Shown piece after piece: positions 31,001 through 34,000 of a DNA stretch of 64,000 nucleotides; the stretch's first letter is position 1; every line of letters begins with the position of its first letter. Origin of the DNA: Escherichia coli (GTDB taxonomy: Bacteria; Pseudomonadota; Gammaproteobacteria; Enterobacterales; Enterobacteriaceae); the NCBI RefSeq assembly GCF_017348835.2, contig NZ_CP072312.1; one strand, written 5' to 3'. Position numbers: made by a program.

Positions 31001-34000
31001 GAGGCTGGTGAATATTTCAGCCAGTATTTCAGCCTTAAACTGTTGCTTATCTCGCTGGTATATACTGCGGTGTCCGTTTTTCTGTGGACACGTCTGCGTC
31101 CTGTATATATTCCTTTGCCATGGCGGAGAATTGTCTCTTTCCTGCTGCTTTATGCTCTGCTTCTGCATCCGGTTGTTCTGAAATCGTTAATCAGACAGGA
31201 GCCGCTGAATGATACTCTAGGCAAACTGGCATCCCGAATGGAGCCTGCTGCCCCCTGGCAGTTTGTATCCAGTTATTATCAGTACCATCAGCAACTGAAT
31301 GCACTGACAACCTTCCTGAATGAAAATAGCGCACTGCCACCACTGGGTAATCTCAGGGATGAATCAGGGGAGAGACCACGCACACTGGTCCTGGTGATTG
31401 GTGAGTCGACACAGCGCGAACGCATGAGCTTATACGGGTATCTACGTGAAACGACGCCGGAGCTGGATGCACTGCGTAAAACCGATCCGGGTCTTACTGT
31501 GTTTAATAATGTGGTGGCATCGCGTCCGTACACCATTGAAGCATTGCAACAGGCCCTTACTTTCGCCAACGAAAAGAATCCTGATCTGTATCTGACGCAG
31601 CCGTCGCTGATGAACATGATGAAGCAGGCAGGCTATAAAACATTCTGGATTACCAACCAGCAGACAATCACAGCCCGTAACACCATGCTCACTGTATTTT
31701 CGCGCCAGACGGACAGGCAGTACTACATGAATCAGCAGCGAACACAAAGTGCGCGTGAATATGACACTAACGTGCTGAAGCCGTTCCGGGAAGTGCTGAA
31801 TGACCCTGCACCAAAGAAACTGATCATCGTGCATCTGCTGGGTACGCACATTAAGTATAAATACCGTTATCCGGAAGGTCAGGGGCGGTTTGATGGCATT
31901 ACAGGGCATATTCCCACTGGATTAAATGCGAAAGAGCTGGAAGTGTATAACGATTACGATAATGCCAATCTGTTTAACGATCATGTGGTGGCCAGTCTGA
32001 TAAAGGACTTCAGAGCAACTGCGCCGGACGGCTTTCTGCTTTATTTTTCAGATCATGGTGAAGAAGTATATGATACTCCGCCATATAAAACGCAGGGACG
32101 GAATGAAGATAACCCCACACGTCCCATGTACACTGTTCCGTTCCTGCTGTGGACCTCGGAAAAGTGGCATGCTGCACATCCGCGAGATTTTTCGCAGTAT
32201 GTTGACCGCAAATACAGTCTGGCTGAACTGATCCACACCTGGTCAGATTTGGCGGGACTGACATACGATGGTTACGATCCGACCCGTTCTCTGGTGAATC
32301 CGCAATTCAGGGAAACCCCCCGCTGGATTGGAAATCCGTATAAAAAGAATGGGCTCACTGATTTCGACACTCTTCCGTATGGTGAGCCATAGTATTTTCT
32401 TATCTTCGGTTCCGTTCTGAAGGCAGGAGGATGTGTTTTCCTCTGCTGTCCGGTGGCCTCCAGGGATGGTACCACCTTCTGCTGTCCGGTGGCCTCCAGG
32501 GATGGTACCACCTTCTGCTGTACTCTGTTATCATAATGAGATAAGCAGGCAGATACCGGTAAATATGAAAAATATCAGAACTGAGTTTATTCCCCGCTTT
32601 AACCTTACATTATGCTTCCCCCGTTACTGGATGACGTGGACAGGTATCGGTATTATCTGTGTGTTTGCAATGGTCCCCCCCGCACTGAGAGATCCATTGT
32701 TGGGAAAATTGGGCATGCTGGTTGGGCGTCTGGGGAAAAGCGCACATCAACGGGCCTTGATTAATTTATCGCTTTGTTTTCCGGAGTACAGTGATAAAGA
32801 AAAGGAGAATATCGTTGATGCCATGTTTGCAACAGCCTCCATGGCCGTTGTGCTTATGGCTGAATTAGCACTGTCCGGGCCTGATAAAATTTCGCATCGT
32901 ATACGCTGGAATGGTCTGGAGATTGTGGAGAAGATGGCACAGAACAATGAAAAGGTCATTTTTCTTGTGCCACATGCCTGGGGAGTGGATATTCCCGCAA
33001 TGCTGATGGCTGCGTCGGGCAGAAAAATGGCAGCGATGTTTCATAACCAGAGAAATCCGGTGGTGGATTATGTCTGGAACAGTGTTCGTCGTCGTTTCGG
33101 AGGAAAACTGCACGCACGTAATGACGGTATTGCCTCCTTTGTCCGCTCAGTCCGGCAGGGATACTGGGGATATTATCTTCCTGATCAGGATCATGGCCCG
33201 GAATTCAGTGAGTTTGCAGATTTTTTTGCGACGTATAAAGCAACTTTACCGGTTATCGGACGGCTCAGCAGGATCAGTGGTGCACGGATAATACCGCTTT
33301 TCCCTGTTTATGACGGAAAGACCCATCATCTGACTATTCATGTCAGCCCGCCACTTGCTATACGACAGAAGAGTGATGCTCATATTGCGCGACAGATAAA
33401 CGAAGTGGTTGAAAATTTCGTTCGTCCACATCCTGAGCAGTATACGTGGATCCTCAAGTTGCTGAAAACGCGTAAAGAAGGGGAAGAGGATCCTTACTGA
33501 GGCAGGTTTTTCAGGATAATGAGCTTACCCAGCAATAGTGGACACACGCTAAGTGAGTAAACTCTCAGTCAGAGGTGGCTCATATGACAAAAGTAAGCGT
33601 ACAGCCTGAACCGTCTGGTCAGAATCTGACGAATTAGACAAAGTGGTGTCCACCAAATAAGTAGTGGGAACCAAAGTATCAGATATGCAGAAAAATGTGA
33701 CTCCCGGCAGGCGAAAAGGCTGCCCTAATTATCCTCCCGAATTTAAACAGCAGCTCGTTGCTGCCTCCTGTGAACCCGGGATATCCATCTCAAAACTTGC
33801 TCTTGAAAATGGCATTAACACCAATCTGTTGTTCAAATGGCGACAACAATGGCGCGAGGGAAAGCTGCTATTACCTTCTTCAGAGAGCCCCCAGCTACTT
33901 CCTGTGACTCTCGATGCAGCTGCCGAACAGCCAGAATCGCTCTGAACCGCCCCGGGTTTCCTGGAGAGTATTTTATCTGTGAACTCAGGCTGCCAGATCA

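Follow-up and report, generated by a model that had tools for sequence, protein, structure and literature searches.

A 36-bp tandem duplication in the ecf3-msbB2 spacer of an Escherichia coli virulence plasmid is probably a recent, strain-private event

A tandem array within the ecf operon

We analyzed a stretch of 64,000 nucleotides (hereafter, the window) of the Escherichia coli contig NZ_CP072312.1 (assembly GCF_017348835.2). It belongs to a virulence plasmid of the enterohemorrhagic E. coli (EHEC) type and carries stcE, the etp type II secretion genes, ecf1-4, ehxCABD, cmi, and FIB/FII replicons. Our subject is a short tandem array in the spacer between ecf3 and msbB2. Direct reading of positions 32442-32521 gives two exact copies of a 36-bp unit, TCTGCTGTCCGGTGGCCTCCAGGGATGGTACCACCT, followed by an 8-bp partial unit, TCTGCTGT. 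Unit 1 (32442..32477) opens with these same eight bases, unit 2 (32478..32513) is the same as unit 1, and the partial unit lies at 32514..32521; these features, like the genes and leader elements of the locus described below, are on the forward strand. Tandem Repeats Finder reported the same interval (period 36, 2.2 copies, 100% matches, score 160). A script likewise found the two units to be the same in sequence and the period-36 identity to be confined to 32442..32521, i.e., 2x36+8. The array is the sole perfect tandem repeat of the window, in which the unit has no other copy at up to three mismatches (none is expected either, from 100 shuffles).

Upstream of the array lies ecf3 (30671..32392), a cptA-type phosphoethanolamine transferase gene of 573 aa identified from its open reading frame (ORF), from NCBIfam (1061.8 bits and full length against NF007933, CptA), and from its relatives, where the counterpart is annotated cptA. 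Downstream, the ORF at 32433-33500 is of the LpxM/MsbB type according to NCBIfam and counts 355 aa from its GTG. Within it, msbB2 (also lpxM or ecf4) starts at a conserved ATG and encodes 311 aa (32565..33500), as supported by the NCBIfam profiles and by annotation. The gene order, i.e., deacetylase, GT4 glycosyltransferase, CptA, and LpxM, is that of the ecf operon of pO157 (ecf1-4), which places the array inside the operon, between ecf3 and ecf4. The initial annotation of this DNA had given the same repeat, coordinates, and gene neighbours, and had set the array 44 bp upstream of the msbB2 start, which is right within one base, since we measured 43 nt between the end of the array and the ATG at 32565. 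Two reverse-strand ORFs that cross the array (32272-32511 and 32400-32534) were discarded as mechanical ORFs overlapping the 3' end of ecf3.

The spacer, taken from the cptA stop to the conserved ATG in the alignments (32393..32564), is 172 nt long in the window versus 136 nt in all pO157/pO103-type relatives. Between the array and the ATG it holds two further elements, both defined by alignment. A 31-nt block, ACTCTGTTATCATAATGAGATAAGCAGGCAG (32522..32552), is invariant in all lineages, although part of this invariance is due to ascertainment, because the loci L007-L013 were retrieved with that very pattern (pRHB14 and pSTEC506 were retrieved by BLAST). The block is probably a functional leader or translation-initiation region of msbB2. 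It is followed by a 10-nt insertion, ATACCGGTAA (32553..32562), specific to the pO157/pO103 lineage. The ecf operon is under temperature control, exerted at a promoter with curved DNA that precedes ecf1 (PMC2811833, PMC2323221), and the known regulatory element of the operon, BNT2, is also located upstream of ecf1, not in the ecf3-ecf4 spacer (PMC2811833). Our search of the literature found no report of a repeat or duplication in this spacer.

A single unit in all other plasmids found

We searched for the array in a collection of 72,556 plasmids and in 5,426 complete E. coli genomes. We detected the locus in 511 PLSDB plasmids and about 530-540 RefSeq E. coli plasmids. Among the matches listed at 99% identity or more (57 in number), the 601-nt query spans 565 nt (564 in one of them), i.e., one unit fewer than in the window. 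A 44-nt probe across the junction of the two units (32460-32503), which shares at most 26 consecutive bases with single-unit DNA, had no match in either collection with megablast, nor with sensitive blastn at E up to 1e-6. For comparison, a control 63-mer made of one unit and its right flank was found in 530 records (531 places), all of them plasmids and none chromosomal, and each of the control matches listed lies under lpxM, i.e., always at this locus. A synthetic zero-unit junction probe gave no match in these searches, so that no deletion allele was detected. The other resources agree with this picture. Exact look-ups in a collection of 15 billion proteins retrieved the one-unit proteins, i.e., one of 343 aa that starts at the GTG, for both alleles, and one of 332 aa, which at least 1000 contigs carry. 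The in-silico 0-, 2-, and 3-unit proteins that we tried were all absent. Among metagenome contigs scanned with the invariant 31-mer, the pO157-type ones have exactly one unit (4/4).

Hence, the two-unit allele is private to the window, and every other plasmid found has one unit. The initial annotation had proposed that copy-number variation here could alter msbB2 expression. It had named an invariable copy number, together with no effect on expression, as what would speak against this idea, and the first of the two is what we find across the plasmids retrieved, with the window as the single exception.

A scan of species-representative genomes returned one contig only, probably from a mis-binned metagenome-assembled genome (MAG). 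The contig CAAGKF010000310.1, from a MAG labelled Lachnospiraceae bacterium, has an ecf3-msbB2 spacer of E. coli plasmids (pRHB14 type) and is probably a mis-binned Enterobacteriaceae plasmid contig.

One unit is the ancestral state

The closest relative of the window in these collections is pF2_18C_FIB (NZ_CP043544.1), with 99.7-99.8% identity. Over 6.8 kb the two differ by three substitutions, two 1-nt homopolymer indels, and the 36-bp insertion. In alignments with pO103, pO157 EDL933, and pF2_18C_FIB, the position of unit 1 is a 36-nt gap, which makes it the extra copy relative to all relatives. These three plasmids have a single copy that reads TCTGCTGT-28 bp-TCTGCTGT; in other words, the 8-bp partial unit of the window is the second of two microhomology arms and was already in the single-unit allele. 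The homologous region is also single-copy in three outgroup lineages, where the arms are degenerate (e.g., TCCGCTGC and TCTTCTGT): pRHB14-C07_2 and pSTEC506, both at about 90% identity, and the metagenomic locus L009, whose MsbB2 is 89% identical and begins with MKNN. Since all three outgroups are single-copy with degenerate arms, one unit is the ancestral state and the change went from one unit to two. Judging from the aligned sequences, it is the pO157/pO103 lineage that is characterized by perfect 8-bp arms. No other part of the spacer varies as much across lineages as the unit region, and the two copies in the window show no divergence from each other.

These comparisons also revealed other events in or near the spacer. 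The L009 locus (positions 1466-3039 of metagenome contig ERZ827101 NODE-2535) represents the ecf3-msbB2 region in a third lineage. There, an IS110-family transposase separates cptA from the spacer, and six nucleotides are duplicated in tandem (AGGCAG AGGCAG) directly before the msbB2 ATG, a further case of minor slippage in this spacer. In another metagenome contig (L008, positions 1-1523 of ERZ1643251 NODE-5247), msbB2 is split into two ORFs of 128 and 177 aa, the end of an IS3-family transposase lies upstream of it, and the homology of the spacer breaks within the unit region.

A probable microhomology-mediated duplication

The array is most probably a recent, strain-private, microhomology-mediated tandem duplication (MTD) of part of a non-coding spacer, with nil or small effect on msbB2. 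In the ancestral plasmid, two copies of TCTGCTGT bracket 28 bp of the non-coding ecf3-msbB2 spacer. During replication, a nascent strand ending in the downstream copy could have re-paired with the upstream one by slipped-strand mispairing. The 36 nt would then have been copied twice, giving the arm-28-arm-28-arm arrangement of 2.2 units. Such an event would lengthen the spacer from 136 to 172 nt and leave the proximal leader of ~44 nt, the 31-nt block, and the msbB2 start codon unaltered. The length of 36 nt, divisible by three, preserves all reading frames.

MTDs turn one copy into two, on segments of about 10-500 bp flanked by arms of 4-25 bp, and E. coli has about 13,000 strain-variable tandem-duplication loci; duplications of this class revert readily (bioRxiv 10.64898/2026.02.28.708716). 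The array resembles them in every respect that we could test. A single-copy segment bracketed by short identical arms went from one copy to two identical head-to-tail copies, the array consists of two units and one arm with its boundaries at the arms, the single copy is ancestral, the allele is strain-specific as in a "variable TD locus", and both the 36-bp length and the 8-bp arm are within the reported ranges. We found no essential difference.

Other classes of repeats fit less well. Variable-number tandem repeats (VNTR), such as those used in multilocus VNTR analysis (MLVA), and phase-variable contingency loci also present head-to-tail repeats near the 5' end of genes for surface structures, here lipid A. 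However, such arrays usually have three or more short units and differ in copy number between strains, whereas this one has two copies of a long unit and its locus shows no polymorphism in more than 500 relatives. Unlike in phase-variable loci, its unit is a multiple of three, which precludes frame switching. Repetitive extragenic palindromic (REP) sequences and bacterial interspersed mosaic elements (BIME), enterobacterial repetitive intergenic consensus (ERIC) sequences, and miniature inverted-repeat transposable elements (MITEs) share with the array a location in an intergenic spacer within an operon. In contrast with them, it is not dispersed (0 chromosomal places in the 5,426 E. coli genomes), forms no significant palindrome, and matches no Rfam family. 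A dispersed repeat element was thus rejected, as this plasmid locus is the only place where the unit occurs.

The start of msbB2 and the status of the upstream frames

The unit is 12 codons long and shares its frame with the GTG at 32433, so that the ORF starting there runs through the array into msbB2, as the initial annotation had pointed out. This in-frame extension (32433..32564) includes two in-unit ATGs, at 32466 and 32502. The earlier statement that it has no counterpart in LpxM holds as well: position 3 of the NCBIfam profile NF006507 corresponds to residue 44 of the 355-aa ORF, position 1 of TIGR02208 to residue 52, and the repeat, at residues 4-30, is outside both profiles. In pRHB14, pSTEC506, and L009 the extension frame is out of frame with msbB2 and has a stop overlapping the msbB2 ATG; the 10-nt insertion brings it into frame in the pO157/pO103 lineage alone. 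The start region ATATGAAAAATA is invariant across all lineages.

Public annotations disagree on the start. RefSeq, with the Prokaryotic Genome Annotation Pipeline (PGAP), gives 332 aa from the in-unit ATG in pO103 and pO157 EDL933 and 311 aa in pF2_18C_FIB, although the DNA is identical; the conserved ATG is also the annotated start in pRHB14-C07_2 and pSTEC506. Among the loci that we retrieved, the lpxM annotation spans 4267-5265 in L001 (332 aa) versus 4986-5921 in L006 (311 aa), corresponding to starts at 32466 and 32565 of the window. Taken together, the profile and frame evidence favours the 311-aa start over the 332-aa one, and we judge the extension to be non-coding or lineage-accidental.

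A second upstream frame also crosses the array. A small ORF at 32431-32544 (MCFPLLSGGLQGWYHLLL...YSVIIMR) has AAGG/AGGAGG upstream, and its end falls within the invariant block, at 20 nt from the msbB2 ATG. The duplication lengthens it in frame, from the 25 codons of single-unit plasmids to 37 codons here.

Could the duplication affect MsbB2 through one of these frames? If MsbB2 were translated from the in-unit ATG (332 aa) or from the GTG at 32433 in the pO157 lineage, the duplication would lengthen an N-terminal extension by a 12-residue repeat, RWPPGMVPPSAV, or would provide two alternative in-frame starts. The extension is indeed open in that lineage and chosen by PGAP in pO103 and pO157. 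In addition, the 10-nt insertion shifts the AGG that resembles a Shine-Dalgarno (SD) sequence away from the msbB2 ATG (about 15 nt instead of about 5 nt) and thereby weakens the SD spacing of the conserved start, and the strongest SD of the region, AGGAGG (32425-32430), is just upstream of the GTG. Yet this AGGAGG sits only 0-2 nt before the ATG at 32431 and the GTG at 32433. The SD of the in-unit ATG is poor (-5.1 kcal/mol), and initiation at the ATG of the second unit would yield the wild-type 332-aa protein anyway. With the LpxM models beginning at residues 44-52, the frame broken in three lineages, the start region invariant in all of them, and the same DNA annotated from the conserved ATG in pF2_18C_FIB, we consider translation from these upstream starts quite unlikely. 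A coding repeat of MsbB2 was rejected on profile coverage and frame conservation: the repeat aligns with no LpxM/MsbB profile and its frame is not conserved in orthologous loci. The small ORF offers another route, in which the duplication would extend a functional upstream ORF whose translation through the leader is coupled to msbB2 initiation. It has an ATG with AAGG/GAGG about 7 nt upstream in the pO157, pRHB14, and L009 lineages, a length of 25 codons in these three lineages, and a stop that lies in the invariant block, at 10-20 nt from the msbB2 ATG. However, it is frame-shifted in pSTEC506, it has no family or annotation support, and the substitutions between lineages are mostly non-synonymous in a by-eye reading. 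Moreover, all three frames are open across the unit, which makes an open frame uninformative. We regard a functional small ORF of this kind as very improbable. Finally, the two routes could be combined: the 10-nt insertion would have crippled the ribosome-binding site of msbB2, MsbB2 would need the in-unit ATG or coupling to the small ORF, and the duplication would alter MsbB2 dosage while being a nascent, unstable repeat. This also seems unlikely to us. If it were true, the duplication would provide a second in-frame start or an upstream ORF longer by 12 codons, the altered dosage would bear on the hexa-acylation of lipid A, and the repeat could revert or expand.

Predicted consequences for msbB2 expression

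The 36-nt insertion is located at least 80 nt upstream of the ATG at 32565, and it leaves the sequence between the array and the gene, including the start region, unaltered. The predicted unpaired probability around this ATG is 0.387 with one unit versus 0.389 with two. Neither the one-unit nor the two-unit leader folds more stably than shuffled sequences (z -0.96 and -0.62). Rfam gave no family match at E up to 1. We found no promoter-like or terminator-like site within the array at the scan thresholds; the sole promoter-like site nearby (32364-32393) is weak and upstream of the array. A new promoter made by the junction was therefore rejected at these thresholds, as was a structured RNA, riboswitch, or terminator, in view of the missing Rfam match, the shuffle-like folds, and the absence of a terminator-like site. 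According to these predictions, the duplication is most likely neutral or slight in its effect.

Variable locus, artefact, or private duplication

Two further explanations compete with a private MTD. The array might be a copy-number-variable element, of the VNTR or contingency type, in which the number of units tunes msbB2 expression. Its place in the inter-cistronic leader, 43 nt from the start codon, would suit such a role; in addition, a two-copy array is intrinsically less stable than a single copy, and MTDs can grow into multi-copy repeats. Against this, one unit is found in the PLSDB and RefSeq plasmids and in the four metagenome contigs, with no 0-, 2-, or 3-unit allele among them; the array has two copies only, its unit is long, and all frames are kept; and neither the proximal leader nor the predicted accessibility of the start site changes. 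We thus see a tunable element as highly improbable. The second explanation is that the source plasmid really has one unit and that the second arose by an error of sequencing or assembly. None of the other plasmids, more than 500 in number, has this allele, its copies are identical, and the two 1-nt homopolymer indels that lie nearby and set the window apart from pF2_18C_FIB may point to consensus errors in one of these records. On the other hand, an MTD is expected to leave just such a footprint, i.e., an exact insertion (36 bp) with an 8-bp microhomology precisely at its limits, which is not a typical mode of read error, and outside the insertion the 6.8-kb region hardly differs from pF2_18C_FIB. 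An artefact is hence less likely than a biological duplication, and on the whole improbable.

Several points weigh against a private MTD of little effect. Slippage is deduced from its footprint, and the event itself is unobserved. The allele is a singleton, which is compatible with a sequencing or assembly artefact. Exact protein look-ups miss two-unit plasmids in which the gene was called from the ATG of the second unit or from a downstream one. The neutrality of the duplication is a prediction. Finally, the conserved ATG of the pO157 lineage has a weak SD match (-3.6 kcal/mol), and initiation further upstream, which the duplication would affect, is possible.

Regarding the homopolymer indels that separate the window from pF2_18C_FIB, they are at 27710 and 27734 (a T run and an A run), upstream of ecf1, and represent genuine variation or, alternatively, errors in the consensus of one record.

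Significance of the allele

What is new here appears limited to an unrecorded allele of a well-known class of mutations. As it stands it matters little, as it adds one more strain-specific MTD to a species that has thousands. It could nevertheless serve as a private marker for this plasmid lineage. It also has consequences for annotation: automatic procedures would inflate MsbB2 to 344 or 355 aa in this plasmid if an upstream start were picked, and the duplication highlights the inconsistent annotation of the msbB2 start on EHEC plasmids (311 versus 332 aa). Should the upstream start or the small ORF be functional, the duplication would bear on lipid A acylation and innate immune recognition.

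Other repeats and repeated genes in the window

The window has three imperfect tandem repeats. One of them (41639-41712; 27-nt period, 2.7 copies) lies inside a reverse-strand ORF of 1004 aa (41132-44146) in the ehxA region, and may reflect the nonapeptide repeats of repeats-in-toxin (RTX) proteins. Another has a 15-nt period (51482-51520). The last (61548-61599; 21-nt period, 2.5 copies) is about 200 nt upstream of an ORF of 325 aa (61804-62781), and its repeats may be replication iterons. We also found five ORFs of exactly 295 aa, at 77-964, 4218-5105, 26306-27193, 34732-35619, and 45405-46292. The ORF at 34732 has an IS3-family transposase as its counterpart in the relatives, which suggests that multiple copies of one insertion sequence punctuate the plasmid.

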